This document shows, in pieces, positions 25,042 to 63,977 of a DNA stretch of 64,000 nt. Every line of letters begins with the position of its first letter. Within the stretch, counting starts at the first letter, position 1. Where the stretch lies: the NCBI GenBank assembly GCA_963702845.1, contig OY969763.1, positions 2,848,001-2,912,000 of the forward strand, read 5' to 3'. Origin of the DNA: an uncultured Verrucomicrobiae bacterium. GTDB lineage: Bacteria > Verrucomicrobiota > Verrucomicrobiia > Limisphaerales > Palsa-1400. The notes under the pieces were generated by a model. That model was not told where the DNA came from, did no database searches, and worked only from the letters and a program-made list of their open reading frames with translations. The position numbers were made by a program, and so were the translations under genes.

Positions 25042-26652
25042 CTATTCAACTGTCAGCCCAACCATAAAGGGAACACTAATTGTTTTATCCGAGACATAAT
25101 CGATCGTCGACAGCGTTAGGTTTGAATGGGGATTGATAAAAGTTGTCCGATACAACACCAGCGATTCGTCGGGCTGCATCCTTTTAATCATCGGGTTCAT
25201 TCCAACCCAGGCTGGTTCGGTCAACGAATCCGTTTTGAGATTCAATGAATTCACACCCGTCTTGAACAACGGAGCCCACCAGTCCCAAACGTTTACCCCA
25301 GGAACAATGCGTAGTTCACTTTTACTGCCATCAGAAAAATGAAGGACCAACTGCCCGATCGGCTGTCCAGCCATCTCGAACGAAATGAGTCCCGCGCCAT
25401 GAAGAATATGAATCTTGCTGCACTGTCGATCGATCCGGATGTCCTTCACCCTCGCTGGATAATCATTTCCCTTCTTATAATGATCAAGCCACCCGCCAGT
25501 AAGATATACAGCTCCCTCAACGTCAAATGGCACACCTCCGAAAATGTGCGTTCCAGTCGGTAACTGCGCCAAATTATCCGAATTATCGCCTTTGTCCCCC
25601 AACGGCCCGTCAGCCAACTTCGTGTTAACGTATGGCTTCAAATCAATCGTCACTGCATCCGTCGTGTCGTTGACTTGTTGCCTCGCCTTGATCTCTTCCT
25701 CCCTCGCCCGTTTTTCACCCGGCCAAACTTCCGCACGAAGTTTTAAGATTTCTGCTCGGTGCGGACTCTTTTTAAACACGCGGTTCATCGAATTATCGAG
25801 GACAGAACCGGGTATGGAAGCAAACCGCTGCCGAAGAGCCGCTTTTTCTGCAGCTTGCCGCTTCGCCGCCACGCTCTTCAAAATCACCGTTGCGGTCCCT
25901 GCCAATAACAAGACAACCGCCGCGCCGATTACCGTTTTCGTTTTTGACCAAGCCATGAATTTTATTGCTCCTTTTACGAGGGTTAAAGTCGAACTACTCA
26001 CGACGACCCCGTGGATCGCCGTGGTAGTTACCGTTCCTGCCAAGCCGATCGGCGCGGCCTGCACCGAGTTTCCCGAAATCGCAGCCACGAGGATGACTGA
26101 GGTAAGCGTGACTCCTTGTTTGCTGAAGAACCGTCGAAGTTTGTCGACCGCGCGCGTCGTTCGTTTGTGCGCTGCCCATTCGCCGATTCCCAAGACGCTG
26201 GCTGTTTCCGATGCCGATTTGTTCTCGAAAAACCGCATCGCCAAAATGGCGCGCTCATTAGAGGTCAGGTTTTCCATCGCTTGCTCTAGAAACGGCGCGA
26301 GTCGGGCCCATGCCTCCTCAGGGCCAAGTTCAGAATTCAACGTCTGCATAGCTGCATCTCGTTCTCGGATTTCCCGGCGAAGTCTCGACCTTAACAGTCT
26401 TTTCGAAGTAAACCGTGTCGTTTCATACAACCAACCCACGAGAACCGTACGCGGGCTCAATCGGTTCGCCTTGCGCGCCAGAATCAGGAAGACCACTTGC
26501 GCCACCTCCTCGGCGTCACGTGCATCACCGACGCGACGCAACGCCGCGGAATACACCATATTCAGATGGCGTTTAACCAGCTCGGCAAAAGCCGATTCCG
26601 AGCCATTATCGGCAAACTCTCGCAATAGCTCCATGTCATCTGGCTCGGCCAT
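25042..26652 (-). CDS. Extended ECF sigma factor 1 (sigma2/4, TM, jelly-roll/carbohydrate-binding-like domain)
   Basis: [30 protein letters not shown], sigma4, Ala-rich linker, TM, then [20 protein letters not shown]. Confidence 0.9.
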
Positions 26653-26743
26653 CTAAATAAGTAATCCCCGACCGCGGCGAAATTGGACATCTATTTTCAC
26701 AAATGTCTCCGCCACGACCGGGGATGATGCCCACCCGCACCTC

Positions 26744-28354
26744 CTACTTGAAATCCGCCGCTGAAAAATTCTGGTTCACCTGAATATTTTCCTGCGTTTG
26801 CGTGTAGATAAACTCACCCGACTTCATTGCTTTGGTCGTGTTCTTCATCATCGAATCCATTCTAGCGCGCACCTCCGCTATCGCCTCCGGAGTCACCGGT
26901 TTTTTTTGTACCCGAAGCATCTCGGAAAGGTCGGCATCGGATAGCTTTATTTCAGCCGAACTCATCGTAACGGAAGTTCGGGTGCGCCGGATCAAGTGGT
27001 CCTGTTTGCCAATCCAAAATGTGTTTTTAAGTTTCCCAACTCGCGAAGCCATTTTGCCTGCGAGACCAGCTTGTTTGGGAATTGCACTTGTATCCAACTC
27101 CATCGTGATCACGAAGCAATCCGCTTCGCCAACCTTCTCATCCTTTCCTTTTGTCTGACGCGAACTCCCACTCTTCGCGGAACTCAACATATTTCCCCAA
27201 CCCTGGTTGAAAAACACGGACGGTATCATCGAGGCCGCCAGCGACGACACGCCAGTCGCCGAACCAATTGCCAACTGCATATTCTGAAATTTCTGCACTT
27301 TCCCTTGCACGCCGCCCGCACCAGTCATCTGAAAATAGTCCCCCGTCCCGTCGTTCCAAGTCGCACCTGTGCTGGTAAACGCACCACCGGTTTGTGTCCA
27401 ATCGACGTGATACAATTGCGGGCGTTGCAACCGAATGTTGAATGCTGTTTCCGTGTTTGCACCACCCCCACTCACAAGGACCGTTCCGCTGCTGCTGTAA
27501 CTCGATAGCGCCGCATACGCGTCCATCGTGCCTTTCACGATTTGTTGCGCTGCCGCGTCGCTTCCATTCGCTGTTTTCGAAATCGCCACCGTCGCCACAC
27601 CGCCAATGAATAAAGCTGCTACGCCCACACCGATTGCTGTTTTCGCCTTTGACCATGCCATAAGTTTAAGTGCTCCTTTAACTAGGGTTATTGTTGAACT
27701 GCTGACGGCGGCCCCCTTGGCCGCCGTCGCAGTTACCGTTCCTGCCAAGCCAATCGGTGCTGCCTGCACCGAGTTGCCCGAAATCGCTGCTCCGATGATC
27801 GCGGTCGTAGAAACCACGCCACGCTTGCTAAATAATTTCCGCAGCTTCTCCAACGCGCGGGCAGTCCGTTTATGCGCCGCCTGCTCATTGATGTTCATCA
27901 ACGCCGCCGCTTGCGCCGCGCTTTTGTTTTCATAGAAACGCAAAGCCAACAGCGCCCGATCCTTTTCACCCAATCGCGACATCGCCGTTTCAAGATGTGG
28001 CGCAAGTTGAGGCCAAACACCTTCGTCGTCGGATTGGTTCAAGTGCGATTGCATATACGCTTCCTGTTCCCGCGATCGGCGGCGCGACTGTGCCCGCAAA
28101 AATCCGGCTGCGGTGAACCGCGTAGTTTCGTAAAACCAACCAGTTAACACAGTGCGATCGCCCAATTTGGCTGCTTTTTTTGCGAAGATAACGAAGACAG
28201 CTTGCGTGACGTCGTGGGCCTCGGCATCGCCGGTCAGACGCAACGCCACGGAATACACCAGATTGATGTGACGCCGAACCAGCTCAGAAAACGCTGGTTC
28301 TGATTCCTGGTGCACAAATTGCCCCATCAATTCCATGTCGCTGACATCCTGCAT
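26744..28354 (-). CDS. Extended ECF sigma factor 2 (C-terminal LolA-like/DUF2092-like domain)
   Basis: Same N-terminal architecture. The C-terminus has YAALSSYSSSG..IRLQRP..FWIGKQDHLIRR..VNQNFSAADF. Confidence 0.88.
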   Translation of the reverse strand: MQDVSDMELMGQFVHQESEPAFSELVRRHINLVYSVALRLTGDAEAHDVTQAVFVIFAKKAAKLGDRTVLTGWFYETTRFTAAGFLRAQSRRRSREQEAYMQSHLNQSDDEGVWPQLAPHLETAMSRLGEKDRALLALRFYENKSAAQAAALMNINEQAAHKRTARALEKLRKLFSKRGVVSTTAIIGAAISGNSVQAAPIGLAGTVTATAAKGAAVSSSTITLVKGALKLMAWSKAKTAIGVGVAALFIGGVATVAISKTANGSDAAAQQIVKGTMDAYAALSSYSSSGTVLVSGGGANTETAFNIRLQRPQLYHVDWTQTGGAFTSTGATWNDGTGDYFQMTGAGGVQGKVQKFQNMQLAIGSATGVSSLAASMIPSVFFNQGWGNMLSSAKSGSSRQTKGKDEKVGEADCFVITMELDTSAIPKQAGLAGKMASRVGKLKNTFWIGKQDHLIRRTRTSVTMSSAEIKLSDADLSEMLRVQKKPVTPEAIAEVRARMDSMMKNTTKAMKSGEFIYTQTQENIQVNQNFSAADFK

Positions 28355-28452
28355 CTACATAGTATTGGCCGGTCAGCGTTGGAACTGGACATTTTATTTG
28401 AACGCCCCAGCGGCGTCAGCCAACCTCAGGCAGCGAACGGCTAGGCCCAGGT

Positions 28453-29877
28453 TCACGCCTTCGGTCGAGAGAAGACGTCGTCGGCCACCGCCTCATTGCG
28501 TTTGACCTCGGTGAACTTAAGCGTCCAGTGTTCCGCTCCGCTCTGGCGCAAAACGAACGGCAATACTAACCCGTCAATCTCCCGATAATCCTCACCATCC
28601 ATTTGATACTGCTGAGCCCCGATTGCGTAATTGATCCGAACCAACAACCCTGTCTGCGTATCGAACCACAATTGCGGCGATTGGTCCTGTAACTTCACTT
28701 CAACAACATAGGCCGAACGTTTGCCGATCGGTTCCTTACCTTTGAGGCTGGCCTTCGGAAGCAGCGCGGCGAGAGAATCACCTCGATAAGCACCCAAAAT
28801 AATTCCCGTCACGAGCGCGTTAACCGGATCCAAATCAGGACCTCCCCATGGAGAGACTTCCCACCCAGCCACTCCATCGAACCCGCGACGGAAAACCGGG
28901 TTACCTCCCGCCTTGAGCACCTCAAGCCAACGATCTGGCGCCTTGACTATCGCCGCGGCGTCCAGCGTTCCTAACCCATCTCCACTTTCGAAAACGCCCT
29001 TCATCGTCAGCGTCGTCGTCTTGTCTGCGCCGGCCATCGGACCTTTGCTTTTCGTGTAGCGCGCAAAAATTTCGGCAACCGTTGGCGATGAAGAAACATT
29101 CTTCGAGACCACCGTTACCGTTCCTGCGGCAAGCAAAACTGCCACACTCGCGATGATACCGACTTTTACCTTTGACCATGCCATAAGTTTGATTGCTCCT
29201 TTTACGAGGGTTGATGTTGAACTGCCGATGGCCGCTCCTTTAGCCGCCGTCGCAGTAACCGTTCCTGCCAAGCCAATCGGCGCTGCCTGCACCGAATTAC
29301 CCGAAATTGCCGTCGCAATGATCGCCGTCGTCGAAACCACACCGCGTTTGCTGTAAAACTTGCGCAATTTATCCAAAGCCCGTGACACGCGTTTTTGCGC
29401 AGTATCCGGGTCAACGCCTAGAATGTTTCCAACTTCGTTGAGCGGTTTTTGCTGGTAGAACCGCAAAACGATTGCGCTACGATCACGCTCGTTGAGTTGG
29501 GCCACCGCTTCGTCGAGCAGCGGCGACATTTGCGCCCATGCTTTCGCATCGGGTTCATTCAAGAGCGATTGCATATACGCCTCCTGTTCGCGGTGCAGCC
29601 GTCGATATTCCGTCCTCCGGGTATTGCGCGCTACGAAATGCGCAGTGCGACAAAGCCAGCCGGCGAGCACCGTCGTATCACTCAGCTTCCCGGCTTTTTG
29701 AGCGAGGATTATAAAAACAGCCTGCGCGACTTCCTGGGCCTGCTCTGGATTCTGAACTTGTCGCAATGCGGCGGAATAGACGAGAGCGATATATCGCTCC
29801 ACCAGCATGGAAAAGGCTTCTTCCGATTGCCGGGAGGCGTAAGCAGACAATAATTCCGCGTCATCCAACTCGCTCAT
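28453..29877 (-). CDS. Extended ECF sigma factor 3 (C-terminal LolA-like domain)
   Basis: C-terminus has KAPDR..GFDG..LWFDTQTGLLVR..DYREIDGLVLPF..NEAVADDVF. Confidence 0.88.
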   Translation of the reverse strand: MSELDDAELLSAYASRQSEEAFSMLVERYIALVYSAALRQVQNPEQAQEVAQAVFIILAQKAGKLSDTTVLAGWLCRTAHFVARNTRRTEYRRLHREQEAYMQSLLNEPDAKAWAQMSPLLDEAVAQLNERDRSAIVLRFYQQKPLNEVGNILGVDPDTAQKRVSRALDKLRKFYSKRGVVSTTAIIATAISGNSVQAAPIGLAGTVTATAAKGAAIGSSTSTLVKGAIKLMAWSKVKVGIIASVAVLLAAGTVTVVSKNVSSSPTVAEIFARYTKSKGPMAGADKTTTLTMKGVFESGDGLGTLDAAAIVKAPDRWLEVLKAGGNPVFRRGFDGVAGWEVSPWGGPDLDPVNALVTGIILGAYRGDSLAALLPKASLKGKEPIGKRSAYVVEVKLQDQSPQLWFDTQTGLLVRINYAIGAQQYQMDGEDYREIDGLVLPFVLRQSGAEHWTLKFTEVKRNEAVADDVFSRPKA

Positions 29878-29940
29878 TACCTATAATTGTCTGCCCGCGA
29901 AAGAATCCGACAATTTAATTTGCGAGAAGCCTGGCGCAGG

Positions 29941-31242
29941 TCACTTCAATCGTGAGACATAGACAAACACCAGCAGGGTTTCCGGCGCGTCCCCCTCGAT
30001 TTTGCTGTTTAAAACAACCGTCTGCCCGGAAGCGACCGCCAAAGTCTGTTCTTTTATGTTGGTTACGCGAATCGAAGGCGACGGCCCATCCACCAAGTCC
30101 CGCAATTCAGCTTCAACCTTCAACGCAATCCTCGAATCCCGCTCAACTACAGGTGTCACACTCAGGGTGGTTCCGACAAACGCGTTTGTGCCGATGGCCT
30201 CGACCGTTTTCTGCATTGAACCCGTCGCTCCCATACCAGTGGCGGTGGTAATACCGGGCGCATCATATAAAGTGACACCCGGGTGTTTATTGATAAGCGC
30301 GCGAAATGCCTTCGTGCTGGGGTCGACAGGAATCACTGGCTTTGCGAACTCCTCGAGAATGGCGCTGACATTCCCGGTTGGAGTTCTGACGAACAAGCCT
30401 TTGATCAAGACCTGCGCTTTTTTGCCGGAATTATTTTTGCTACCGAAGGGGGTTGCCGTCCCTTTGTCAGACAGCGCTACTGTGGCCACGCCACCCGCCA
30501 ATAAAATTCCTGCGGCGATACCGAATGCCAATTTGAGTTTTGCGTAGGTCATAATCTTGAGCGTTCCTTTCACTAGGGTTGAGGTTGAACCGTTGATTGC
30601 TGCGCCACTGACAACAGATCCTGAAATTGTTTGGGCCAAAGAAATCGGGGCGGCCTGCACCGAATTACCCGAAATTGCCGTCGCAATAATTGCGGTCGTG
30701 GAAACCACACCGTGTTTGCTGAAATACCTGCGCAACTTTTCAAGGCTGCGATTGACACGCATCTTGGACGCATCCTCACTTGCGCCCATCGCTGCGCCGA
30801 CGTCCTTAAAATTCTTATCTTGATAGAACCGGAGCACGATTGCGTCTTGTTCCTTCTCGCCCAATCCGGCAATCGCGGTTTCAAGCAGCGGCGAGAGTTG
30901 AGCCCACGCGTCAATTTCTGGTTCATGGCTGCTAGATTGCATGTAAGCCTCCTGTTCGCGTGCAAGCCGGCGGCGCTGTTGTTTCAACGCGTCAGCCGAA
31001 GCAAATCGTGCGGTGCGACAAAGCCACCCGGGAAGAATCGTCTTACTGCTGAGCGAACCCGCCTTGCGCGCAAGAACGATGAACACCGCTTGTGTGACAT
31101 CCTGCGCCAGGTCTGCGTCCGTCACTTGTCGCAGTGCAACGGAATAGACGAGATTAACGTGCCGCGCGACGATCGAGGCAAAAGCCTCCTCGGAGCCCGT
31201 CTCCGCATACCTTCGCACCAAATCCATGTCGTCACTCGTCAT
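29941..31242 (-). CDS. Extended ECF sigma factor 4 (C-terminal secretin-like domain)
   Basis: C-terminus has [41 protein letters not shown]. Confidence 0.85.
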
Positions 31243-31316
31243 CTCGCCTATATATGGACGCCCAAGCAGAAAAGTAACTGACTATTTCGCAACCCTAACC
31301 CGCGAAGCCACTCCGA

Positions 31317-31640: not shown

Positions 31641-32336
31641 TCATTGTGGCGTCGCGGCTACGTGTGAATCGAAATAGAGTTGATTGCGAACGTTCCCGTG
31701 GGCCGGATTGATCGGCTGATACCAAAAATATTGCGCCGCGGGAAAACCGTTTTGCTGGTCCACATCCGTAAGCGCCCATGACAGGGCCGGATTGTAGATT
31801 TCGCGCAAACGTTTCGGAGCCTCATCCGCGTTCGTAAACGGCGGGGTCTGCGAATGGGGGTAGCCAAACGGTCGGGTCACAACACCTGAATTAATATTGG
31901 TGACAACAGGATTGGCCATGTAGCTCAACGGCATGGTCAACGCCATCAAGGGCGTTCCAGGATCAGCCGAAAACCAATGCCGCGCCGCCGAAGGACATCT
32001 GGCCAGGAGCATGTTCTGCGGAGTGGATCGAGGTGCCGGCAGTCCCATGTAGGTCGCGATGTAATACGGCAGCCGGGTGGCATCCTGATTGTCGTAATTC
32101 TCATAAAACCCCAACCAGACCGGCCCCGGCAATCGATCGTCGTGCTCGCTGGCGTACAATTGGAACGCAACGGCAATTTGTTTCAAATTATTGCCACATT
32201 GCGTGCGACACGTCTTTTCTTTCGCCCGGGCCAAAACTGGCAGCAGAAGCGCGGCAAGGATCGCAATCACACCAATGACGATCATCAACTCGACCAGCGT
32301 AAACGCGCTCTCACTTTTTTTCATCGTGGGCCTCAT
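31641..32336 (-). CDS. Prepilin-type protein (DUF1559-like, H-X9-DS variant)
   Basis: AFTLVELMIVIGVIAIL, CGNNLKQ, HGNVRNQLYFDSH. Confidence 0.9.
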   Translation of the reverse strand: MRPTMKKSESAFTLVELMIVIGVIAILAALLLPVLARAKEKTCRTQCGNNLKQIAVAFQLYASEHDDRLPGPVWLGFYENYDNQDATRLPYYIATYMGLPAPRSTPQNMLLARCPSAARHWFSADPGTPLMALTMPLSYMANPVVTNINSGVVTRPFGYPHSQTPPFTNADEAPKRLREIYNPALSWALTDVDQQNGFPAAQYFWYQPINPAHGNVRNQLYFDSHVAATPQ

Positions 32337-32359
32337 CGTGTAAAGGAAGTTTTTCAAAT

Positions 32360-33901
32360 TTACTTTACACGCGCAAAAGTCATCGAGATGACTCGCTCGC
32401 CCTGCCGCCATTTGCCGATAATTTGGGTGTCATCCTTGTTCAATGTGCCTTGAAACGCACCGTTCCGCGGTCCAAAGGGAGCAAGCTTTACAGTGGTTCC
32501 TTCATAAGTCACCAGCGTCGACTGGCGAAAGTACCCTCCCTCGACACAATAAAAGTCGGCGCGAAACTTTCCGGCAGACGGCTCGGCAATATTTACATTG
32601 AAGTGCAATACACCTTTGCCGGCTTTTATCTCACCCGTCCAGGAACTCTGCAAATCCGAACCGGCCCTTCCGGCAAATTCGCTTTTAGCCAGAGATGGAA
32701 ATCTTGCATACGTCTCCCCGAAGTGTTCTTCGTCGATTACACTGCGCCAATTTCCATCCATGTTGGTCATGGTAATGATCTCGTAACCATCTTGTGGCAA
32801 ACCGTCAAAGCGCAATTCGAGTGATACCTGGCCATCTGGAAGAACGGCCTTCTTCTCGATACGCATAGCGCTGATAGGCTTTATAGTTTCAACGAGGATC
32901 TGCGACCTGTCCTGATCAGTCTTCGTGTTTCTAAAAAGCAAACCTCCGAATTCTCGCGCCAGTTCAGGTGTTAAAGCGGCAAAAAAGGCTTCCGAATTGC
33001 CGGTGCTCTTGGCCCAGATAGACGATTCAATGGCGGCTTCGGGCGTGGCATATCCCCTGAAAGCCCACGAGCCTCTTGGAAGAACCGCCACCGGTTTATG
33101 CCAGTCAAAAAAGTGTCCTTTGTAGACTTCTGTCCCACCTGCCGCAGCAAGCAGGACTCCCGCACCGGCGATGACCGCAAATTTCATTTTCGTCCATGCC
33201 ATAAGTTTCAACGATCCTTTGACCAGACCCACCGTTGACCCCGGGGCTGCGGCTCCCTTCGCCAGCGCCGTCGCCATAACGGAAGCTGTCAACGCCGCGG
33301 GTGCCGCTTTCGCGGCGTTAGCCGAGAGGACAATCCCGATCACCGCAGTGGTCGTAGTGACATCACGTTTCAGGAAATGCCGCCGTAATTTTTCGAGCGC
33401 TCGATGCACCCGACTCTGCGCCGCCGCTGGGGAAATATTCAGCGCTGCTGCCACATCGGGCAGATTTTTTTCTCCGAAAAAGCGAAGCACCACAGCGTCG
33501 CGATCTTTTTTTGCCAACCTCGACATCGCGTCATCAAGGAGTGGTGCGAGTTGCTCCCAAACTGAAGCGTCCGTCGTCGACTGCAGGGTGGATTGCATAT
33601 AAGCCTCTTGTTCGCGGTTTTGACGTCTCCGCTCCCCGCGCAGAAAACTTAACGACGTCAGCCGGGTCGTTTCGTAGAGCCAGCTTTCCAAAACGATGTC
33701 CTTGCGCAAAGTCGATGCTTTGTGCGTCAGAATAAGAAAGACCGCCTGCGTGATCTCTTCAGCATGCGCGGCAATTCCAACGTGTCGCATGGCCGCAGAA
33801 TGGACGAGCCCGATATGCCGCCGGACCAACTCGGCAAACGCTTCCTCCGACCCGTGTCGGCTATAATCCTGGATCAGTTCAATGTCGTTCACATCGCCCA
33901 T
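32360..33901 (-). CDS. Extended ECF sigma factor 5 (two extracytoplasmic domains)
   Basis: Same N-terminus and TM, a GYATPEAAIES domain, then a small beta domain (WTGEI..FQGTLN..GKWRQG). Confidence 0.88.
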   Translation of the reverse strand: MGDVNDIELIQDYSRHGSEEAFAELVRRHIGLVHSAAMRHVGIAAHAEEITQAVFLILTHKASTLRKDIVLESWLYETTRLTSLSFLRGERRRQNREQEAYMQSTLQSTTDASVWEQLAPLLDDAMSRLAKKDRDAVVLRFFGEKNLPDVAAALNISPAAAQSRVHRALEKLRRHFLKRDVTTTTAVIGIVLSANAAKAAPAALTASVMATALAKGAAAPGSTVGLVKGSLKLMAWTKMKFAVIAGAGVLLAAAGGTEVYKGHFFDWHKPVAVLPRGSWAFRGYATPEAAIESSIWAKSTGNSEAFFAALTPELAREFGGLLFRNTKTDQDRSQILVETIKPISAMRIEKKAVLPDGQVSLELRFDGLPQDGYEIITMTNMDGNWRSVIDEEHFGETYARFPSLAKSEFAGRAGSDLQSSWTGEIKAGKGVLHFNVNIAEPSAGKFRADFYCVEGGYFRQSTLVTYEGTTVKLAPFGPRNGAFQGTLNKDDTQIIGKWRQGERVISMTFARVK

Positions 33902-34215
33902 CTATCTGTTTATGGCCGTGGAAATGCAAAATCAGGCAATTCTTTTTAACTTTTTTACGGCGAGAGTGACGATCGCATTTCCAGTTTCCAGTGTCGGTTC
34001 TCACTATTTATTACAAACCAGCAATAAACTCCCCCTTCAAGGGCGAGGACTACTTAAACCAATTCGGCTCGGACCTTTCCGCAATGCCGTCTTGCTTCCC
34101 TCAACTCTCAACCAAACCGTCCGAGAGCGCGCAACGCAGAAAAGTGACTGACTATTTTACAGAAAAACCGTCAAACACCTACACCGCAACCACTTCCTCC
34201 AAAAACAAAAAATTC

Positions 34216-38983: not shown

Positions 38984-38992
38984 TTCCTTCGC

Positions 38993-41900
38993 CTACTTCA
39001 TGATCCGCTGGAACTCTGGCGAACTTCGCAATGACATCGAAGTTATGATCGTTTTTGTTGTAAGTGCGTAAATCCTGTGAAGCGGGATGGCTGTCGTTGA
39101 CTTGCATTGCTTTCTTCAACGTCTCGAGCGCTTCGTTCGTTTTATGTTGGGCGGATTGCAGGCTGGCGAGGTTGTACCAGGTCTCCGCCGAATCAGGTGC
39201 TACGCTGAGCATCTTTTTCATGATGCGTTCCGAGCCAGACAGATCGCCCATTTGAACGTAGGCGCTGGCAACGCTCATCAACACCGTCGGATCCGATCCG
39301 TATTGACCTGAGAGCGTCTCGAGCATGTGCGCGGCTTCGTTCGTCTGCCGAGCCTGGATGAAACGTTCGATTTGGACCATGACATTACGGGCGCCTTCCA
39401 ATGAGACTTGATGCCTGCTGTTTTCAAGTTGCTCGATCAAGCTCGTGATTTGGCCATTGAACGGATCGAGTTTTTGGCACGTCTTCGCGATGTGGATAGC
39501 GTCGTCGACGCGACCCATCTTTAGCAAAAGCTGGACGAACCGATACACCGCTTCAGGGCTGTAGGGGCAGTAAGCAAACGCCTGCTTGAACGCAAACTCA
39601 GCTTCTTTGCGGCAACGGGCCTGTTCGGCGCCAGTGCGGTAATCAGAACGCCATTGATAAATGCCGCCAATGGAGCTGCGCAATTTTGAAAATGCCTTCT
39701 GCCCATCGTCGTCACGGACGAACTTGGGATCACCGGTGAAACCGCTGTAGTCGTGATGATAATAGACCTTCTCGGCCCAATTACAGACCTGTTCGACCGT
39801 TGTGTCATACGTGATCCAGTTGCCCGTGAGCCGGTCCGAGAATTGCTCCAGAAGTCGTGGTCGCGAGCGACGACTTCATCGGTGATTTCTACCGGCTGCC
39901 GGTTGATTTTCATGATGACTCCAAACGGCGACAGATACGGATACATCCAGTCGAGCGGGAAGCTTTCTTCGACGTAGAATTCGTGATCCGGATTCTTATC
40001 GAAGATTACTTTGGTCAACAACCCGTTGATAGCCATGACAGCAACCTGACCGGAAACCTGGACGTGGCCAGAGTTGTCGAAGTGAACGTCTTCGCCTTGC
40101 CTGATCTGGCGAGGTTCATTTTGAGAACGGGCGTCGTGTTCGGCGCGTTTCGTCGCGTCCGTGATGTATTCGTTGAAGCACGCTGCGGAGTCTTCAACAG
40201 TTGCACTGCGAATTTCCGTGTCGGGATACACACCGCCCAGACTTCTCACGATGTCCAACGGATACGATTCTTCCAGCATGCGACGATTCAAACGCACTGA
40301 CGTATTTGCCCATGCAGTCAAAGGTGTCGGCTTGCCCTCGGGAGCACCTTGGACGGTGTGGAGGATCAGAATAGGCAGCTTCACATTTTGGAAACGATCA
40401 GCGCTATAGATCGAGCCATTTTGCAGGATCTCGTTCAAATCCTTAACGAGCGCACGTTTCAAGGCACTCTCGTCGGATTTATTATCCAGGAGCGCCTGCG
40501 TTTCCTTACTGCAGTTGTCGTAGAGATATTTTCCGAGCGCGTCGGAGCTGTTCTTTTGCATCTTCGATGCCAGGTCTTTGACGTTCAGGAAATCGCTTTC
40601 CTTGAACCAGGACGTGCCGCAACGGCGGCTGCGCTCGATCTTTGCTCCAAGTCCTTCGAAGATGTCATCGAGCCACGCCAATGCGCGTGTATCGTTATGG
40701 AATGTATTTGGGAATTCCGTCGGTAAGAACTTCTGGAAGAACGGCGGATCAATCTGCAGGCTGCGATTGTAATGGGCGCGGATGTATGCGAGGTAGGTAT
40801 TATCCGCTAACGCATTCTGCGTGATGATATAGACGTCGCGACGATCAAAATTCGGATCACGACGGCAGCTCGGCGGGATAAAGCTTTCGTCGAAAATCAT
40901 GTAAGTCGGGCAGAACCGGCCAGGGTCGGTGCCGCCGTATAGCACCGCGTCGCGGTCCATTTCAGGATAGATCAATTTGGCCTTGGCGGGATCCTTCATC
41001 ATTTCTGCCCGGAGTTTCGGATCATAGGTAAGCTTGCCATCCGTGCCAGTGAATGGAGGTGTGAACATATCATGACCGAAATAAAATCCGAACAAGTGTC
41101 CGCGTTGCTCGTTTTCTGCCCAGTGCGAAATCACCGACACCAACGGCATCAGCGCAAAAATGGTCAGCAAAACCTTCAGGTTCACCCGATCTCGCGAGAA
41201 AAGGACAAGGCCCAGGAATGCAATCACCAGCACAACAACCCACAGCGCGCCCCAAATCGGCAACGAACCCAATCCGCGACTCACTAGATGTTGCATTGCG
41301 TAAATGAGCGCTTTCGGCGCTGCCATTATACCCGTCGCACCGGGGATATCTCCATACGTCGTGATCGTCGCCCAATACAAACCCATGAACGCCGCCAGCC
41401 CCGCAACCGCGCCGCCTATCACCACCCAAAAGCGCGTGCGCTGAAACTGCGTCAACATCCACGCCGCCGTGAGCGTTATACCATAACCAATCCACAACGA
41501 AACCGGCACATACGATGCTGTGAAAAACACCTTAACCAAAGACTTCGTTTGCCGGTCGGGCGACGGATTCAGCAACACCATCAGCAAGAACCCGAGGCAA
41601 ATATAGATGCCGAACAATCCAATCATCCACGCCTTCTCGCGCCGTTGCATGCGCATGAAGAAAATGAACGGAACAATTGCGAACAATAGGTAGACCAACG
41701 TGAATTCGTCGACCGCGCCTTGGAAATACATCACGACCTGGCTGATAAACCGACCCGGGTCATGAATAAAATCCGTTGGATTGGTTCGCTCGTATTGACC
41801 ACGCGAGAGCGCATGGAAAAAGCCTTCCACAGTGCGCGGATAACCCCAGTTCATCGGCGGATTACTCATCGAGGCAATCGGCATGTAGAAATAGAACGCG

Positions 41901-42892: not shown

Positions 42893-43339
42893 TTAAGGGT
42901 AAATTCCATTTATGGAGTTGGACGCGGGTCGCAACTCGTGTTGTGCAGAGCTAAAATTTGTTGTTCGCCATGTGGCATGGGGCCAAACGTTCCATTCTAT
43001 GTTTTCGTCGGCCTTGCTCAATGCAAATGTTTGGGAAGAAATGTTCGACGACGAGGCGTCGACCATGAGCGTGGCAAAAAAAGTCGCGTTATCGCGGGAG
43101 GGATATGGCAGAGGGCGTCGGGAATTGCCGCTGCAAAGCACTACCACGGTAAGGCAGCACGCCGCCACCGGCGTCAACCAATTCCAAAGCTCGATGCCGC
43201 GCCAATGATGCGGCGCGTCGGTTTGGGCGCGCGGTTTAGCCGCAGCACCGCCCTCGAACAATACTCTCGAAATTTTATCCGAGGGCTGGCGAGGATTCCA
43301 GGATTGCAACCGTTTCTCCAAAATATCCGGATTGCTCAT
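42893..43339 (-). CDS. Putative anti-sigma factor (single TM)
   Basis: LEKRLQSWNPRQPS N-terminus plus a TM segment; overlaps the 3' end of the ECF gene. Confidence 0.65.
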   Translation of the reverse strand: MSNPDILEKRLQSWNPRQPSDKISRVLFEGGAAAKPRAQTDAPHHWRGIELWNWLTPVAACCLTVVVLCSGNSRRPLPYPSRDNATFFATLMVDASSSNISSQTFALSKADENIEWNVWPHATWRTTNFSSAQHELRPASNSINGIYP

Positions 43340-52425: not shown

Positions 52426-54231
52426 ATGGCCAAGACATCGGTGAAGAAAATTTCAGCAGCCCGCAAACCAAAAACCAACGGTCACATCAATAACGGAGAG
52501 ATAAAAAACACAGCCATAGCAGCAACCAACGGTGCATTAGCAGGCACGCGTTTGGACATCGCCGCAGGCCGTGATTTCGCCGCCGGCGCCACGATGATGA
52601 AGAGTTCGAGCGGTATTGATTTGACGGAAAAAATCAAAGAGTTACTCCGGCTCGCGCAGGAACAGGGTTATCTCACTTACAACGATATCAACGAAGCATT
52701 GCCCGACGGAGTTGTCGCGGATGACTTAGACGAGATATATAGCAAGCTGCGCAATCTCGAAGTTGAGATCGTCGACCAGGCCGAAGTTGATCGCGTCAAA
52801 CAACCGGAACCCGAGGAAGAAGAAGACAAAGTTCGCCTCGATATTCTCGATGACCCGGTCCGCATGTATCTCAAGCAGATGGGCCAGGTCCCATTGCTCA
52901 CGCGCGAACAGGAAGTTGAAATTTCCAAGCGCATCGAAGACGCGGAAAATGAAGTTAAGCGCATCATCTACAGCTTCGGTTTCGCCGGCAAAGAGCACAT
53001 CGCCCTGGCGGAAAAATTGATTTCAGAACCGCCCAAGGAACGTTTCGACCGCGTCATCGTCGATAAAAAAATCGAAGGTCGCGAAAACCATCTTAAAGAG
53101 CTGCGCAAGCTGGTGAAAGATCGTTCGCGTCCTCGACGAAACCGTCGACGAAAAATACAGCGAAGCGCTCGAAACCAGCAAGACCGACGAGGACGAAGCC
53201 GGTCAAAGGAATTTCGAAAAGCCGACGAAAAACTGCAGAAGTCGTTTCCGAAGTTCTACTACAAGCAAAAGGTCATCGAAGAAATGGGTTTGGTCGCTGA
53301 GAACATTCACGACAAAATCCAGGTCAGCCTGCGGACGATCGCCGAACTGGAAGCGCAACGCAAATCGCCGGCACAGCAAAACATCATCCAGGCGAAGAGC
53401 GCAAAATTCAGGCGCTCGAAATTTTCGTCCGCATGCAGCACCAGGATTACATCAAGTCCTATCAGCAGTTGCAGTATTTCAGCCGCAAGGCTATCCAGGC
53501 GAAAACAGAAATGGTCGAAGCCAATCTGCGCCTCGTCATTTCCATCGCCAAAAAATACACCAACCGCGGCCTGTCGTTCCTGGACCTGATTCAGGAAGGC
53601 AACATGGGCTTGATGAAGGCGGTCGAAAAATTCGAATATCGCCGCGGCTATAAATTTTCGACTTACGCCACGTGGTGGATTCGCCAGGCGATCACCCGTT
53701 CCATCGCCGACCAGGCGCGCACCATTCGTATCCCGGTGCACATGATTGAAACGATCAACAAGCTGATGCGCGTGCAGAAGCAGTTGATCCAGGATTTCGG
53801 TCGCGAACCTTCTCCGGACGAAATCGCGGACGAAATGCAGATGCCGGTCGAGCGCGTCCGCGCCGTCCTGAAGATGGCGCAACAGCCGATCTCCCTGCAG
53901 TCTCCTGTCGGCGACAGCGAAGATACCAATTTCGGTGATTTCATCGAAGACAAGTCCGCCGAGAATCCGTCCGACATGACCAGCTACAGCTTGTTGAAAG
54001 ACAAGCTGGGAGACGTGCTCTCCAGCTTGACTGAACGTGAACGCAAAGTTTTGGAACTGCGCTTCGGTCTCGGCGACGGATATTCGCCGCACGTTGGAAG
54101 AAGTCGGCAAACAATTCAAAGTGACGCGCGAACGCATTCGTCAGATCGAAGCGAAAGCGTTGCGCAAGATGCGTCATCCAACCCGTATTCGCCAACTATC
54201 CGGCTTCCTGGAAACCGAAGAACCGGTTTAA
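52426..54231 (+). CDS. rpoD: RNA polymerase primary sigma factor, several frameshifts
   Basis: [32 protein letters not shown] and [16 protein letters not shown] across three ORFs. Confidence 0.95.
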
Positions 54232-54309
54232 ACAACTTTCCCGCCCTAGCGGCGGCCTCCAGTGAGTCGTTATTGCAATCAAACGCGCGAAGCATAAACT
54301 TCGCGCGTT

Positions 54310-54738
54310 ATGTTTTTCCGCAAACTCGCCCTCATCGTTGTTGCTGCTTGCACACTGAACACATTCGCCGCTGAACCGGCGTCGCCTTCGCTGGCGCCAG
54401 ACTCGCGCTGCTTTGAAATGCGCACTTATTTCGCTGCGCCTGACAAATTGGAAGCGCTTCATGCGCGCTTTCGCGATCACACCTGCAAATTGTTCATCAA
54501 ACACGGCATGCAACTCGTTGGCTTCTGGGTTCCGATGGACAAGAATAAAAAATACGAAAATAAATTGGTCTACATCCTCGGCTTCCCCAGCCGCGAAGCG
54601 CGCGACAAGGCTTTCAAGGAATTTGGTCAGGACCCTGAATGGATCAAAGCTCGCGACGAATCAGAGAAGAACGGCAAAATCGTAGAGAAAGTCGAATCCG
54701 TTTTCATGACCGCAACCGACTATTCACCTATTAAATAG
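54310..54738 (+). CDS. Exported NIPSNAP-family protein
   Basis: [24 protein letters not shown]. Confidence 0.88.
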
Positions 54739-54930: not shown

Positions 54931-57900
54931 TTGAGAGTTGTGAGATTCAGATTTATCCCAAAAAGCGCGGTTTGGATTGCTGCCATTCTTGTGCTTGCGG
55001 GGACGTCGCGCGTGCATGCGCTTTCAGGCACCAACCAGATTTCTGCAGCGAACATCAACGTCGTTCAAAACGATACCAGTAATAACGCCACATCGGTAAC
55101 GCTCTCCACCCCCGTTTCCATCAACGATTTTCGGGTCATCAGCGGAACGCAAAGCAGTCGTGGCGATTATTTTGTGCAGATCGGCGCGAGCGCCACAGAT
55201 GACGTCACGAATGGAATTTTAATCTCATGCATTGACCAGAATGGCCGCGACAACGGGGAAACCGGCGATTATTACGGCGTGAATTTCGGGACGAGCGCGA
55301 TCGACAGTGGCGCCTCCACTTCTCCCGGCTCCAGTGGCCAGTGGTGGATACCGGTTTTTCAGGCACCGCAAAATGGAGAATATAACTTCAACGTCGCCGC
55401 TGCCTATTTTCCCTATTCGGAAGGTTGGCTCGGAGGCTGGCTGAGCAATAACAAGGGAACTAACGGCGGCGCGAACAATCATCTCATCGGAAACCCCAGC
55501 TTGCAGATTGGCATCCACGTTATCGATCTGGGTGGCGGCCAGACTACGGTGGATTTGCGTTCATTCGACCTGGACGCACGCAGCAACGCGGTGTTGCTGG
55601 TAGTCGGCGGCAAGAACGAAGCAAACTTTGCGCTGGCCGGGAACAATACGAACGGCACGTGGACGGTTTATTGCCACGATGACAATGGTGGAAACGAGCA
55701 GGATTACGTCGGCTTTGTTTGCGTGCCGTTGACGAACCATACTGTGGTGTCGGGAAGATTTCGTGGAAACGCGGCCATCGCGTTAAAGAGCGAGTCGTTC
55801 ACGGTGACCAGCGTCGGCGTCGGCACGTATCATCTGAGCATTCCGGGAGTGAATCCCGCCAACGGCGTCCTGATTGTGTCGGCTGAAGGCGGCGATGCGA
55901 TCAATGTCGACAATATGGTCAGCTATCAGATGAACGGCGACGGCTGGGACATCCAGACGCGCGATATCACCGCAGGTTACCCGCCCGCATTGCAACAGCT
56001 TCCCGATACTAACGATGTCGCGTCCTTCGTTTTTATCCCTGCCCCGCCGCCACGTTCCCTGACTTGGGTCGGCTCGCCACAAACGACTTGGAGCCTGACC
56101 GGCGGCAATGTCTGGCGTCAAACCGGCAGCAGCACGGCGGATACTTATGCAGATGGCAACTTGGTGATCTTTGACGACTTGGCGTCAAACTTCATAGTTA
56201 CGGTGACGGGAACCGTTTCTCCGAACACTGTCACGGTGTCGAACATCCTGCACAGTTATTCCTTGAGTGGCTCAGGGACAATCTCTGGCGCGACAGGCTT
56301 CACCAAACAGGGTAACGGAACTCTCGTTCTTGGCACGGTCAACAATTACTCAGGCGATACCGCGCTTCTGCAGGGCAGACTCGTGCTGGGCGCATCCGGG
56401 GCGATTCCCGGTGGCGATAATGCGGGCAGCGTTTTGTTGAACGGCATCCTGGACCTCGCGGGGTTCAACACCACACTCAACAATCTCTCTGGCAACGGTG
56501 CGCTATATAATAATGGCAGCGCGGTGACGTTGACTGTGAACGCCGCAACCAACTCGACGTTTTCCGGGACGCTGGGAAATAGCGGTTTCATCAATCTGGT
56601 CGCCACCGGTGGCGGTTCGCTGACCCTGACCGGCAATGATGTTTTCACGGGCGATGCAATCGTCAGCAACGCCACACTCGCGATCAACGGCACGCTGAGC
56701 GCTAATCGCCTCACGGTGCGAAACGGCAGCACGCTTGCCGGAACTGGCGTAGTCAACTGCCCGGTGATTTGCGAGGCCGGCAGTTCGCTTGCTCTCTCGC
56801 CTGCCGACGCGTTGAGCATCAATTCGTCGCTCACACTGAATGGCGAAGTGAATGTTATGGTTGCGGGCAACATCTCGCTGACAAACACTGCGCAATACCT
56901 GCTGCTGAATCACGGCGCAGAAACTGGCTCTGGATTCTTCACGCTCACACAGCCGGCGGGGCTGCAATGCAACGGTTTAAAAGCGTTGCTCGTCGATTCT
57001 GCCGGACAGCTCAAGTTGGTCGTCACCAATGCGCCTCTGAACGGCACTATCAGCGATGTACGCCATGTCGTTTTGCTGATGAACGAGAATCGGTCGTACG
57101 ACCATTACTTCGGGACACTGCACGGCGGACGCGGCTTCGACGATCGCAATGCAATGTTGTTGACCACTGGCCTCAATGCGTTCCACCAGCCGACCGGCTC
57201 GGAGATCCGCCTATGAACTACCTTTCCATTCCAGCGAGCAGTGCCTCACCGATTTGAACCATAGCTGGCCGGTGACGCACACCACCTTCAATAACGGGAG
57301 AAGCGACCAATGGGTACCGAACAAGACACCGGAGACGATGATGTTTTATACGCGCAATGATCTTCCCTTTTATTACCAACTGGTCGACGCCTTCACCATC
57401 TGTGACGAGTATCATGCCTCGGTGATTTCTTCCACGTTCCCGAACCGATTCACGTACATGACTGGCATGATCGATCCGCATAGCACCGGCGGCGGCCCGG
57501 AGATCGACAATTCTACGCCACCCAACGGTTTCACGTGGAAGACGTATCCCGAAATGCTGCAAGACGCGGGCGTGAGCTGGAAAATTTATCAAGTCAACAG
57601 TGACGACGGCGACAACATCACGAAGCAGTTTGCCGCTTACAAAAATGCAAAGCCCGGCAATCCACTCTACGACCGCGGGATGGTCCTTTCGGCCAACGTC
57701 ACTGCCATGGTGAATTTGTTCCAGGGCGACGTGACCGGCAACAAGCTGCCAAGCGTTTCGTGGATCATTGGCCCGAGCGATTACTCGGAGCATCCGCCCC
57801 ATTCGCCCGCCAACGGCGAGATACTCACGAAAGCGATCCTCGATGCGATTGCGTCGAATCCCGCAGTGTACAATTCCACCGTGTTCATCGTGAACTACGA

Positions 57901-59087
57901 TGAGAACGATGGGTTTTTCGATCACGCCATGCCGATTCTTCCACCGCAACCAACAGCCGATGAGTTTGTCGGCAATATGCCGATCGGACTTGGCGTTCGT
58001 GTGCCGTGTCATCCTGGTGTCTCCATGGTCGCGCGGCGGACGTGTCTGTTCACAGGTGTTCGACCATACTTCGACACTGCGGTTTCTCGAAGAGTGGACC
58101 GGCGTCAGATGTCCGAACATCAGCGCGTGGCGTCGCCAGGTTTGCGGCGATCTCACGAGCGCGTTTGATTTCGCGCATCCGGACTTTGTTTATCCAGGCG
58201 GCTCGTTCACCAATCTGACCACCGTTAGTTGTCCTTCGGGCAACACGGTTTCGCCGCCGCTCACGCAAACGGTCCCGACACAGGAACCGGGCACGCTCAC
58301 ACCCGTGCCGTTGCCGTATCAGCCGAATGCATTCTGCACGCTGAATTCCAGCGCGAGCACGCTGACTGTTACGATGACAAACTCCGGCAAGGCGTCTGTT
58401 CACTTTGGGGTTTACCCAAATACTTACAGCACTGCCGACCCGCAACCGTTCGATGTTCCACACGCGACCTCGATTAACACGACGTTCAGCCTTTCGGCAA
58501 CGGCAGGCAAATATGATTTTAGCTGCTATGGCCCGGACGGTTTCCAGCGGCGGTTCGCCGGGAATCTTGCTTCCGACTTCAACAAGATTGAGGCCGTTTC
58601 TATTCTGAATCCGACCAATGGCGCGACCGCGATTGCGCTCGAAAATCTTTCGAGTTCAACGGTGACGTTCGGTCTGACCAATGGCTACACGCTACAGACT
58701 GCGAGTTATGTCTTGCCCGCCCACAGCACAAATATGATCAACGTCGGCGGTGAAACGAACAACGGGCTGTATGACGTGACTGTCACCTCGACCGCGGACA
58801 GCTTCTTTCTCCGTCGTTTCCTTGGCCGGGCTCAGATCATCCCCACCACCCTGCCCCCGACACCGATTGTTTTATCCAACCCGACAGTGGCGAGTGGCAA
58901 CGTTCAGTTTAATTTCATCGGACCCGCCGGACAATCATACCAAGTGCTAGTCACGACGGATGTCGCCGACAGCAACAGTTGGCAGATCATCTCGTCGGGA
59001 GTCTTCGGGAATACCATTGAGACGTTCAATGATCCGAGCAGTGTCAGTAGCCATACGACGCGTTTCTATCGAGTGGTTTCACCCTGA
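54931..59087 (+). CDS. Large secreted fusion: unknown N-terminal domain, autotransporter-associated beta-strand repeats, phosphoesterase/phospholipase C, DUF756-like domains, FYRV tail; frameshifts near 57205 and 58008
   Basis: TKQGNGTLVL..NNYSG repeats; ENRSYDHYFG, TFPNR, SEHP, YDENDGFFDH, FDHTS. Confidence 0.8.
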
Positions 59088-59136: not shown

Positions 59137-59337
59137 TTACTGCCCGAAATCGCTCTTTTTTTACTTAACCTACCGTTGGTTACCTTTGCTTACCGATGGT
59201 TACCGAATCGAATCCAGCAAAACGCAATCGAGTGCACCTAACACGCGTCTTCGCTTCTGATTGCATCAGTTTAGGCGAAGTGTATTCTTTTCAAGATCCT
59301 CAAAAGTTTGAGCGTTCGGGATTGTCTTATTTGGCGT

Positions 59338-61750: not shown

Positions 61751-61776
61751 ACGGGTTCGGTTCTTAGTATTGACAA

Positions 61777-62493: not shown

Positions 62494-62501
62494 ATTTCTC
62501 C

Positions 62502-63977
62502 TCATTTCATTAGTCCCGACCGGCCAACCGTCATCGCTATGATCAACGCCGCGGATTGGTTTTTGCAAGAAAACCAATCCATGCTCGTAACTGTTACGGA
62601 CGGATTGGGATTGGCGATCGCGGTCAGACAGAAACGCACCGGCCGGTTTTGCCCGCGGGTGCGGGTCCCACCCACCCAGACCGCTTTGGAATTGGAGCCG
62701 GTTGGATCATTCATCGTCTTGGATTTCGGTCCAGTCGGAGTGTTTGCTTTTTTACCAGATCTGGCGGCCCACTCGACGATTTCCGAGCCGTAAAGCAATT
62801 GATTCGTCGCCGTCGATCCGTCGTCATAATGAAAGACGACCTGACAAACGGGCGTGTTATCGGGCGAGGGGAAGAAAGCGCTATTATACACGTAGAGCGT
62901 CTCAAACTTCTGGTTCACGTCGATGCCAAGGGCCTTTTCTGGAAAAACCGCACCACCTGCGGCATTCATAGCTCCCCAAAGAAAAATCGTTCCATCGATC
63001 TGGAGCGGCACATGCTCGAAAACTTGAAACCCCACGGGAGCAACCGCCACGGGAGCATTCCCCGAAACAGGATACTGCGTTATCGTATCAAAAAAGGAAA
63101 CCGGCTCAGAGTAGTGGGCCGTTAGATCAATCGGCGTGGCAGTATGATTTGCAATGGCGCGTTTGCCGGCAGCGAGTGCGATGCTGTGTTGGATTGGTTC
63201 TCGCAAGACGACCACTGTGGCAATGGACGCTGTCAGCAAAGCGCATGCGCCCGCTACAAGCCCGGTCTTGGTTTTTGTCCACGCCATAATCTTTAGTGCT
63301 CCTTTGATGAAAATTGAGATCGATGCTGCGGAGTGCGCCGCGGACAAGGCGGCGGACGTGGCGGATGCGGCCAGGCCCGTGGGGGCGGCGTGCGCGGAAA
63401 GTGCAAAGAGAGGCGCGCCAGCGGTGAGAGACGGTGTCGCGAAACCACGGCTGCGGAAGAATTGGGTCAGTTGATCCAAAGAACGGCTGACCCGTTTGCG
63501 CGCGGCATCTTCGCCCACGCCAAGGGCCGAACCGACTTCCCGGAAAGTCTGGCCTTCCATGAAATGCATGATGACGGCCGAACGGTCGGGATCGCGCAAT
63601 CGCAATAGCGCTTCATCCAGCATCGGCACCAGTGCCGACCAGACGGAATCGCCTTCCGCGCCAGCTAATTCCTGGCTGACTGCAACTTGTTCGCGATTGC
63701 GGCGGCGTAATTCGGAACGCAGCCAGTCACGGGATTTGTTCAGTGTCGTTTGATGGAGCCAGCCGGCGATGGTTGGATGGGAACGCAATTTGCCGGAGGA
63801 TTGCGCCAACGCGACAAAAACGTTTTGGGTGATTTCTTCAGCGGCGCTCCGATCGCCAACCTGTCGGAAAGCGGTGCCGAATACCAAATTAACGTGATGG
63901 CGCACCAGCGCGGCAAAGGCCTCTTCGCTGCGCCGGGCGTCGAATTCTGCGATCCATTGTTTGTCCTGTTCCGACAT
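62502..63977 (-). CDS. Extended ECF sigma factor 6 (same C-terminal domain family as ECF1)
   Basis: [15 protein letters not shown], sigma4, linker, TM, then PIDL..VPLQIDG..FHYDDGS..ANPNP. Confidence 0.9.

Follow-up and report, generated by a model that had tools for sequence, protein, structure and literature searches.

A candidate internal translation start in the genes of predicted membrane-tethered ECF sigma factors from Verrucomicrobiota

The window, a 64,000-nucleotide stretch of DNA (G000:C1:2848001-2912000) from the 6.03-Mb single-contig genome of an uncultured Verrucomicrobiae bacterium, contains six genes for sigma factors with long C-terminal extensions. Inside each gene, shortly before the segment encoding a predicted membrane anchor, there is a sequence resembling a Shine–Dalgarno (SD) motif that is followed by an in-frame ATG codon, and this internal site may initiate the synthesis of a second protein lacking the sigma factor domains. 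All six genes are located on the minus strand: gene 1 (25042..26652, 536 amino acids), gene 2 (26744..28354, 536 amino acids), gene 3 (28453..29877, 474 amino acids), gene 4 (29941..31242, 433 amino acids), gene 5 (32360..33901, 513 amino acids), and gene 6 (62502..63977, 491 amino acids). Each of the six open reading frames (ORFs) has Pfam matches to Sigma70_r2 and to Sigma70_r4 or r4_2, and the score of the NCBIfam model TIGR02937 is above the cut-off for all six proteins, none of which has a Pfam match to the Sigma-70 r3 or r1 domain. By their content of regions 2 and 4, the six proteins belong to the extracytoplasmic function (ECF, group 4) sigma factors of the sigma-70 family. Bacteria rely on ECF sigma factors as one of their principal means of signal transduction, and the accepted schemes of their control involve either a separate anti-sigma factor or a fused regulatory extension.

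The order of the parts is the same in all six proteins: an ECF core and a linker of about 50 residues come first, then the motif K-G-x-h-K-h-M-A-W-x-K-x-K, a hydrophobic stretch of about 20 residues, and a variable C-terminal part. The C-terminal parts are 200-300 residues long and specific to each gene; five of them, including that of gene 1, have no Pfam match, and that of gene 4 has a weak match to the Secretin family. None of the six proteins has a Pfam match to an anti-sigma domain of the FecR, zf-HC2 or RskA type at E ≤ 0.01. In an AlphaFold2 model of residues 1-265, with a mean predicted local distance difference test score (pLDDT) of 77, the linker forms two short helices with pLDDT values of 54-80. 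The predicted anchor consists of a lysine-rich flank and the hydrophobic stretch of about 20 residues, and a helix is modelled at residues 221-257 with a pLDDT of only <50. Such a protein would be a membrane-tethered ECF sigma factor, in which the 50-residue linker and a single anchor helix connect the sigma2 and sigma4 domains to a variable domain facing outwards.

The internal start region of gene 1 (25945..25995, minus strand, as are all the features of the six genes given below) is composed of a G-poor tract, the sequence AAAGGAG (25968-25974), an 11-nt spacer, the ATG codon (25954-25956), and the first codons of the peptide MAWSK. The corresponding regions are positioned at 27650..27700 in gene 2 (AAAGGAG 27673-27679, ATG 27659-27661), 29173..29223 in gene 3 (AAAGGAG 29196-29202, ATG 29182-29184), 30541..30591 in gene 4 (AAAGGAA 30564-30570, ATG 30550-30552, with the peptide MTYAK), 33191..33241 in gene 5 (AAAGGAT 33214-33220, ATG 33200-33202), and 63276..63326 in gene 6 (AAAGGAG 63299-63305, ATG 63285-63287). 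The original prediction, made from the letters of the window, had placed in-frame ATG codons with their first bases at 25956, 27661, 29184, 30552, 33202, and 63287, and all of them are found there, at residues 231-234 of the proteins; the three example strings that it quoted match the sequence exactly. As it had also claimed, AAAGGA is located 18 nt upstream of the ATG in all six genes and is extended to AAAGGAG in four of them, the exceptions being AAAGGAA in gene 4 (29941-31242) and AAAGGAT in gene 5 (32360-33901). Its description of the downstream peptide applies to the genes encoding MAWSK or MAWTK followed by about 20 hydrophobic residues, but one gene has MTYAK instead. In each of the six genes, the ATG codon follows a sequence complementary to the 3′ tail of 16S rRNA, in the arrangement AAAGGAG-N11-ATG or a near variant of it, and this spacing is within the range of 4-13 nt expected of internal starts.

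The pattern of an internal AAAGGA and ATG is far beyond chance. A profile of the linker and anchor matches 19 ORFs in this genome, and these 19 genes of the family contain 15 of the 93 in-frame AGGAG-N4-12-ATG sites that occur in 3297 long ORFs. The sequence AGGAG is under-represented in long ORFs genome-wide, with a frequency of 4.2e-4 per nt vs 1.05e-3 predicted from base composition. A 172-codon ORF in another frame (27138-27656, minus strand) begins at the second ATG of ATGGCATGG in gene 2; it is not kept in the other copies and is probably a chance occurrence.

The preference for particular codons at the site is not explained by the general codon usage of the genome. The prediction that glycine is mostly encoded by GGC or GGT is borne out by 2104 long ORFs of the genome, in which GGC accounts for 48%, GGT for 22%, GGA for 17%, and GGG for 12% of the glycine codons. 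By contrast, the glycine codon of the internal site is GGA in 15 out of 15 cases, and the preceding lysine codon is AAA in 14 out of 14, vs a genome background of 61%. These counts come from 16 of the 19 paralogs; the remaining ones, including -_2230252_529, were read separately. Among 3279 ORFs that do not belong to the family, AAA-GGA encodes 9.7% of 3759 K-G dipeptides, and AAAGGAG is used in 7.4% (42/569) of K-G-[AV] tripeptides. The comparison of the glycine codon in homologs with the background was set in advance as a test of the prediction, and the codon departs from the background: it is GGA in 77 of 78 instances, which originate from 74 of 79 loci in other Verrucomicrobiota assemblies. 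The motif search recognised these 74 loci of the other assemblies and left out 23 of 80 metagenomic loci. The sequence GGA-G is kept where Gln, Asn, Arg or Asp has taken the place of the lysine.

The codon preference extends upstream of the K-G codons. In a codon alignment of 84 sequences, the five strongest codon biases among 154 conserved columns are all located 3-12 codons before the methionine. The frequencies in the biased columns, compared with the background of the family, are 80% vs 6% for TTA, 81% vs 14% for TCA, 92% vs 17% for GCA, and 81% vs 26% for TTG; in the glycine column, 99% of 81 glycines are encoded by GGA vs 22% in the family background. The favoured codons are specific rather than A/T-rich, since ACC and CTC are preferred too, and the sum of these choices is a stretch of about 20 nt upstream of the SD-like sequence that is nearly free of G.

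Silent sites of the region are under constraint in the whole family, from position -39 to +12. The synonymous differences were counted in 129 unique sequences arranged into 64 independent nearest-neighbour pairs, each of which was compared with its own average, and this procedure controls for shared ancestry. The deepest trough in the gene covers the nine codons before the methionine, where the synonymous differences are at 0.42-0.52 of expectation (77 observed vs 182 expected). A second trough, with a ratio of 0.72-0.75, is located at a methionine in the linker between the sigma2 and sigma4 domains. The ratio is close to 1 over most of the gene and higher than 1 from the anchor helix onwards.

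The 3′ tail of the 16S rRNA of the organism is canonical (CCTCCTTTCT). The strongest mean pairing of the gene with this tail, as calculated in 9-nt windows over 860 nt of 84 genes, is -8.3 kcal/mol at position -19 from the ATG of the anchor. The second-strongest pairing is -6.7 kcal/mol, about 13 nt before the ATG of the linker, and the background is -1.35 ± 1.33. Duplexes of -6 kcal/mol or stronger precede the methionine of the anchor in 90% of 84 sequences and that of the linker in 82.5% of 80 sequences vs 13.8% of 19,636 control codons. The predicted folding of the gene has its minimum on the ATG of the anchor (-2.5 kcal/mol per 39 nt vs about -9 for the gene) and a second minimum on the ATG of the linker. 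A conserved RNA hairpin at the anchor site was considered and rejected, because the consensus fold contains pairing of only 3 + 4 bp and the segment has the weakest structure of the gene.

The second site has the form AGGAGG-N5-ATG (Met ~102) and is conserved in most members of the family, in which it reads GAA CAG GAG GCT TAT ATG. The first glutamate is encoded by GAA in 76 of 83 sequences and the glutamate two codons later by GAG in 71 of 79, and it is this combination of choices that builds AGGAGG five nucleotides before the ATG. In gene 3, the site (29572..29589) is composed of CAGGAGG, a 5-nt spacer, and the ATG at 29572-29574 (Met102), and its duplex with the 16S rRNA tail has an energy of -10.3 kcal/mol. 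Gene 4 has the same CAGGAGG and 5-nt spacer (30940..30957) with the ATG at 30940-30942 (Met101). Weaker versions are present in genes 2 and 5 (28052-28069 and 33596-33613), the site is absent from gene 1, and gene 6 lacks the methionine itself. Both internal methionines are at domain boundaries in the AlphaFold2 model, that of the linker at the end of the last helix of sigma2 and that of the anchor at the start of the long terminal helix.

The 50 constrained nucleotides may instead constitute another element embedded in the coding sequence, such as an internal promoter, a site bound by a small RNA or by an RNA-binding protein, or a site of RNA processing or stability. The constraint reaches approximately position -39 (TCA ACC TTA ACC CTC), which is beyond a minimal SD sequence, and the selection of specific codons, not just of A/T-rich ones, agrees with such an element; in gene 1, a scan for the sigma-70 consensus identifies TTAACC-16-TAAAAT across the site. 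However, the scan finds consensus matches at the level of shuffled sequences (6 vs 5.9), and the internal promoter was rejected as a candidate because the region is no richer in them. Furthermore, the most strongly constrained codons, GGA GCA, would be positioned in the spacer of the promoter, and the transcript would start after the ATG. An embedded element of any kind leaves unexplained both the complementarity to the 16S rRNA tail and the recurrence of the arrangement as AGGAGG-N5-ATG at a second in-frame methionine, and it is distinctly improbable as the cause of the constraint.

The use of SD sequences by ordinary genes of this genome is sparse. Duplexes of -6 kcal/mol or stronger are found at 11.9% of 901 ORFs with an unambiguous first ATG vs 11.1% of internal methionine controls, and the positional enrichment of GGAG ahead of first ATGs is only small. 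No SD sequence was found at the Pfam-matched S10 gene or at the next long ORFs downstream of it in the region G000:C1:1104588-1107872 (L195). The prfB gene (4811100-4811520, L196), however, keeps the classical +1 frameshift cassette GGAGG-TTT-CTT-TGA, in which GGAGG is three nucleotides before CTT TGA. Because this cassette is conserved, the anti-SD sequence engages mRNA in this organism. The sequences thus indicate a lineage that is poor in SD sequences, yet has an anti-SD that is functional in some sense.

The 5′ starts of the six genes in the window lack an SD sequence, as had been stated in the original prediction, and their best duplexes with the 16S rRNA tail are -1.7 to -5.7 kcal/mol. 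Since ordinary genes of this genome are also without SD sequences, these starts follow the norm and do not represent an anomaly. The region upstream of gene 1 (26653..26700) resembles a promoter, with an A-tract, TGTCC, and a TA-rich hexamer 5-6 nt before the 5′ ATG, and similar regions precede genes 2-5 (28355-28400, 29878-29925, 31243-31290, and 33902-33950). An A-tract, TTGTCC, TTT, and a TA-rich hexamer that ends about 7 nt before the ATG occur at fixed spacing in 110 upstream regions of homologs. The position of the motif suggests a leaderless or nearly leaderless mRNA as the probable template of the full-length protein, and the shared motif is perhaps a common promoter that is recognised by the sigma factors themselves.

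The engagement of the anti-SD in prfB takes place during elongation, while real starts rarely use SD sequences, and this speaks for an alternative in which the SD-like sites act on elongating ribosomes. They might pause or reposition ribosomes at the two domain boundaries, so as to time the folding of the sigma domains or the targeting of the anchor helix to the membrane, or they might cause recoding, in which a +1 slip at AAA-G onto a stop codon would release a soluble sigma factor. The location of both sites near domain boundaries in the AlphaFold2 model is compatible with this alternative, and rare-looking codons ending in A are concentrated directly ahead of the anchor helix. A stop codon in the +1 frame, exactly three codons past the lysine codon and 7 nt before the ATG (25963-25965 in gene 1), is conserved in 116 of 129 family sequences. 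However, this stop codon is present in three and missing in the other three of the six genes in the window, and its conservation may be a by-product of the sequence TTG-AAA. A frameshift of the prfB type was rejected, because the 0-frame is open in all six genes and the SD-like sequence, which would have to precede a slippery codon by 3 nt, shares nucleotides with the one candidate for such a codon. The pausing of ribosomes by SD-like sequences is itself disputed in the literature. Both SD-like sites are followed by conserved in-frame ATG codons, at distances of 5 and 11 nt, which a pause element would not need, and the structure minima on the ATGs and the G-poor tract upstream fit initiation. 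An action on elongating ribosomes is, on balance, an unlikely explanation of the sites.

Relatives in which the sigma factor part is absent or separated show how the downstream segment can be arranged. In this genome, a standalone ORF of 273 amino acids (G000:C1:4565341-4566162, L011/L173) starts with MAWTKTKK and a hydrophobic helix. It begins 19 nt past the stop codon of an extended ECF paralog, and two codons ahead of its start there is a stop codon. The 273-residue protein has a weak match to a family with the beta-galactosidase trimerisation or ThuA-like fold. Locus L159 and the second gene in L086 have no sigma factor sequence upstream, and they keep a remnant of the tract that precedes the ATG, which contains AGAGGAG in L086. 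In L105, the sigma domains have been lost, and the linker, AAAGGAG, and an intact ORF of 253 residues are kept. In L139, a shift of 1 nt brings the +1-frame stop codon described above into use: the ORF of the sigma domains and linker ends at this TGA, 7 nt upstream of the ATG, and the sequence is split into two genes. The 57 instances recognised in the 80 metagenomic loci comprise 43 full fusions, 10 genes cut by the edge of the locus, and 4 sigma-less or split forms. Such variants show that the peptide can be the N-terminus of a protein and that the region can precede a gene. They are few, and some of them may be pseudogenes or assembly errors.

Several candidates for sigma-less variants were discounted. 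The paralog at G000:C1:2650073-2651575 (L006) contains a single frameshift between sigma4 and the linker and is intact from the internal methionine onwards. It represents either an error of the assembly or a split of recent origin. This paralog (2650730-2651575) and L118, in which a single frameshift has the same location, were not accepted as natural sigma-less variants, since indel errors are likely; for the paralog, the reason is that the same assembly contains other split genes. In the window, the primary sigma factor (52426-54374, plus strand) is split, with regions 1.1/1.2 in one ORF and regions 2-4 in an overlapping one, and a phosphoesterase of the phospholipase C type is split into three overlapping ORFs (54931-59087, plus strand). 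Both splits are due to frameshifts and are probably indel errors of the assembly, the completeness of which is 89.8%. Among the 120 matches of one database search, 37 start at MAWTK and 18 at the methionine of the linker. Starts called at these two places mostly restate that gene callers recognise good ribosome-binding sites, and the two internal sites mislead such programs. Database proteins starting at MAWTK were rejected as proof of standalone genes because most of them are on contigs of about 1 kb, where they are indistinguishable from calls on truncated genes. The only two that were matched to loci, P0187 and P0194, did not settle the point.

The existence of standalone and split forms, and the attachment of highly diverse C-terminal domains to a constant N-terminal module, could also be explained if the site had no present role in translation. 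It would then be either the relic ribosome-binding site of a two-gene operon that became fused or a tract of homology through which C-terminal cassettes are swapped. However, a relic would not restrict silent change to 0.42-0.52 of expectation in assemblies of many different lineages. The boundary of the variable part is about 30 codons downstream of the site, after the anchor helix, where silent change equals or exceeds expectation; a recombination junction was rejected as the cause of the constraint, since the variable part starts only past the helix. In addition, the second SD-like sequence and ATG have a constant sigma domain on either side, and no swapping takes place there. Both a relic and a shuffling tract are very improbable.

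The best explanation of the site is an in-frame internal translation start that yields a sigma-less isoform consisting of the anchor and sensor, to which we assign a probability of about 0.57 on the basis of sequence comparisons. The results of the codon test, the complementarity to 16S rRNA, the trough in synonymous change, the minimum of structure, the position at a domain boundary, and the sigma-less genes all speak for the internal start proposed in the original prediction. That prediction is supported in part: the role it suggests for the short form, as an anti-sigma partner, decoy or effector, is conjectural, and with only about 7 cytoplasmic residues the short form would have no room for a classical anti-sigma domain.

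A number of observations weigh against internal initiation. The 11 nt between GGAG and the ATG are near the upper limit of the usual spacing. Real starts in this genome hardly use SD sequences, so that SD-led initiation is itself conjectural in the organism. Among distant homologs, 7 that come from another family of the class keep the methionine without an SD sequence, as do 4 divergent paralogs encoded in this genome; therefore, the invariance of the methionine alone is no evidence of a start codon, and it may have a role at the level of the protein that is older than the SD sequence. The peptide is extremely conserved, with the glycine present in 150/150, the methionine in 150/150, and the tryptophan in 149/150 cluster representatives, and M232 is one of 14 invariant columns among 116 sequences. 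A part of the nucleotide conservation is thus driven by the protein. The homologs are related to each other and were retrieved by peptide patterns that include K-G and M-A-W, which pre-selected the amino acids, though not the codons, and the codon backgrounds are proxies derived from long ORFs rather than from the output of a gene caller. The conserved +1-frame stop codon also counts against internal initiation.

If internal initiation takes place, the initiation region would be formed by the G-poor tract, AAAGGAG paired with the 16S rRNA tail of the organism, the A/U-rich spacer of 11 nt, and the ATG. Entry of the 30S subunit at this ATG would produce a second protein that starts with MAWxKxK and has no parts other than the anchor helix and outer domain. 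In most members of the family, initiation at the linker site would provide a third form, composed of sigma4, linker, anchor, and sensor. The full-length form would start at the SD-less ATG right behind the promoter-like motif, probably on a leaderless transcript. The short form might tune or partner the tethered sigma factor, as a decoy or a co-receptor for the signal or a protease; alternatively, it might itself be the working periplasmic protein.

These elements can be combined into a nested feedback module of three proteins. The leaderless, SD-less 5′ start would provide small amounts of the full-length tethered sigma factor, and the internal sites, as the only strong SD sites of an otherwise SD-free genome, would provide larger amounts of the two shorter forms. 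The sigma-less anchored form in the periplasm would be a working effector or co-receptor, and the other form, in most members, a tethered protein with sigma4 only. The rare full-length copy would report the state of the outer domain, and its proteolytic release would raise the transcription of its own gene. Any periplasmic domain placed behind the constant cassette of sigma domains, linker, ribosome-binding site, and anchor would gain a dedicated sensor, which, if the module is true, would explain the spread of the family with many unrelated outer domains. That all these steps hold jointly is doubtful.

Internal translation starts that are in frame at a domain boundary and combine an SD-like sequence with local synonymous conservation are well known from bacteria. 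According to the available part of the text of bioRxiv 10.1101/520783, they include ArcB-C of Escherichia coli, and ClpB, IF2, and MrcB are named there as other genes with internal starts. ArcB and the genes described here share an SD-like sequence and an in-frame start at a domain boundary of a signalling gene, and the product, which is predicted here, is truncated at the N-terminus (10.1101/520783, same part). Unlike ArcB-C, for which that text describes the opposite arrangement, the predicted short form keeps the anchor and sensor and loses the output domain, which is the sigma factor. Further differences are the conservation of the site over thousands of cluster representatives, the SD-poor genome, and maybe two nested starts. 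The prfB cassette also has a conserved SD-like sequence within a coding region that pairs with the anti-SD; however, the ECF genes have neither a stop codon in the 0-frame nor an SD sequence 3 nt before a slippery codon, and an in-frame ATG is present instead.

Fusions of ECF sigma factors to membrane segments have been described previously. In the accessible part of PMC8999054, IutY of Pseudomonas putida (an ECF243 hybrid) has an N-terminal ECF sigma factor, a membrane-spanning segment, and a periplasmic C-terminal part, and its activation is ascribed to regulated proteolysis. The proteins from the window resemble IutY in combining an ECF sigma factor, a predicted membrane segment, and a predicted outer part in one polypeptide (PMC8999054), but differ from it in the lack of Pfam matches to FecR-type or other anti-sigma domains, in the linker of about 50 residues, and in the many unrelated outer domains. 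In the actinobacterial groups ECF48/52/53 (SCO4117), the ECF core continues into a transmembrane extension that carries an extracytoplasmic domain, and proteolytic release has been proposed for them in the same part of PMC8999054. In contrast to the proteins from the window, they are described there as having a zinc-finger anti-sigma-like domain, for which there is no Pfam match here, and they belong to another phylum. Within that part of the article, there is no mention of an internal start in IutY, and short isoforms co-produced with ECF48/52/53 are not reported. Because it has no recognisable anti-sigma domain, the family was not filed with the hybrids of sigma and anti-sigma factors. Verrucomicrobia are not mentioned in the available portion of the main text of the ECF reclassification (PMC7826278), the supplements of which may give the family a numbered group. 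No report of an internal start in an ECF gene, or of this family from Verrucomicrobia, was found in the open-access library that was searched. What would be new here is the application of internal initiation, a known phenomenon, to membrane-tethered sigma factors. The same gene would then supply a regulator and its competitor, partner, or effector, a mode that is undescribed for sigma factors in the literature searched.

The linker-anchor profile matches 3918 cluster representatives at E ≤ 0.001 and 1468 at E ≤ 1e-10 in a set of 1.84 billion proteins. The labels of the assemblies that provided DNA of relatives are Verrucomicrobiota, Verrucomicrobiia, Limisphaerales, or subdivision 3, and further DNA of relatives originates from metagenomes of peat and soil. 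Matches at E ≤ 1e-8 are present in 7 of 401 evenly sampled genomes of the phylum, including that of the window; one of the 7 is from the same order, and five, with distant matches, are from one other family of the class. This large and uncharacterised family of predicted tethered sigma factors dominates the sigma factor repertoire of soil and peat Verrucomicrobiota. It provides a clean natural test: ordinary genes of the lineage have abandoned SD sequences, and the question is whether its conserved anti-SD serves initiation.

Genes with a prepilin-type N-terminal methylation motif are located directly downstream of ECF genes 1 and 5 (24281-25033 and 31641-32411, minus strand). One of them also matches DUF1559, and that at 31641-32411 overlaps the stop codon of ECF gene 5 by about 50 nt. 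These genes may be members of the regulons of ECF genes 1 and 5. The window also contains a conventional short ECF sigma factor of 181 amino acids (43275-43820, minus strand), followed by a 150-amino-acid ORF (42893-43345, minus strand) and the gene of a TMEM260-like protein of 1122 amino acids (39521-42889, minus strand). This locus has the ordinary arrangement of ECF genes and provides a contrast to the extended genes in the same window.

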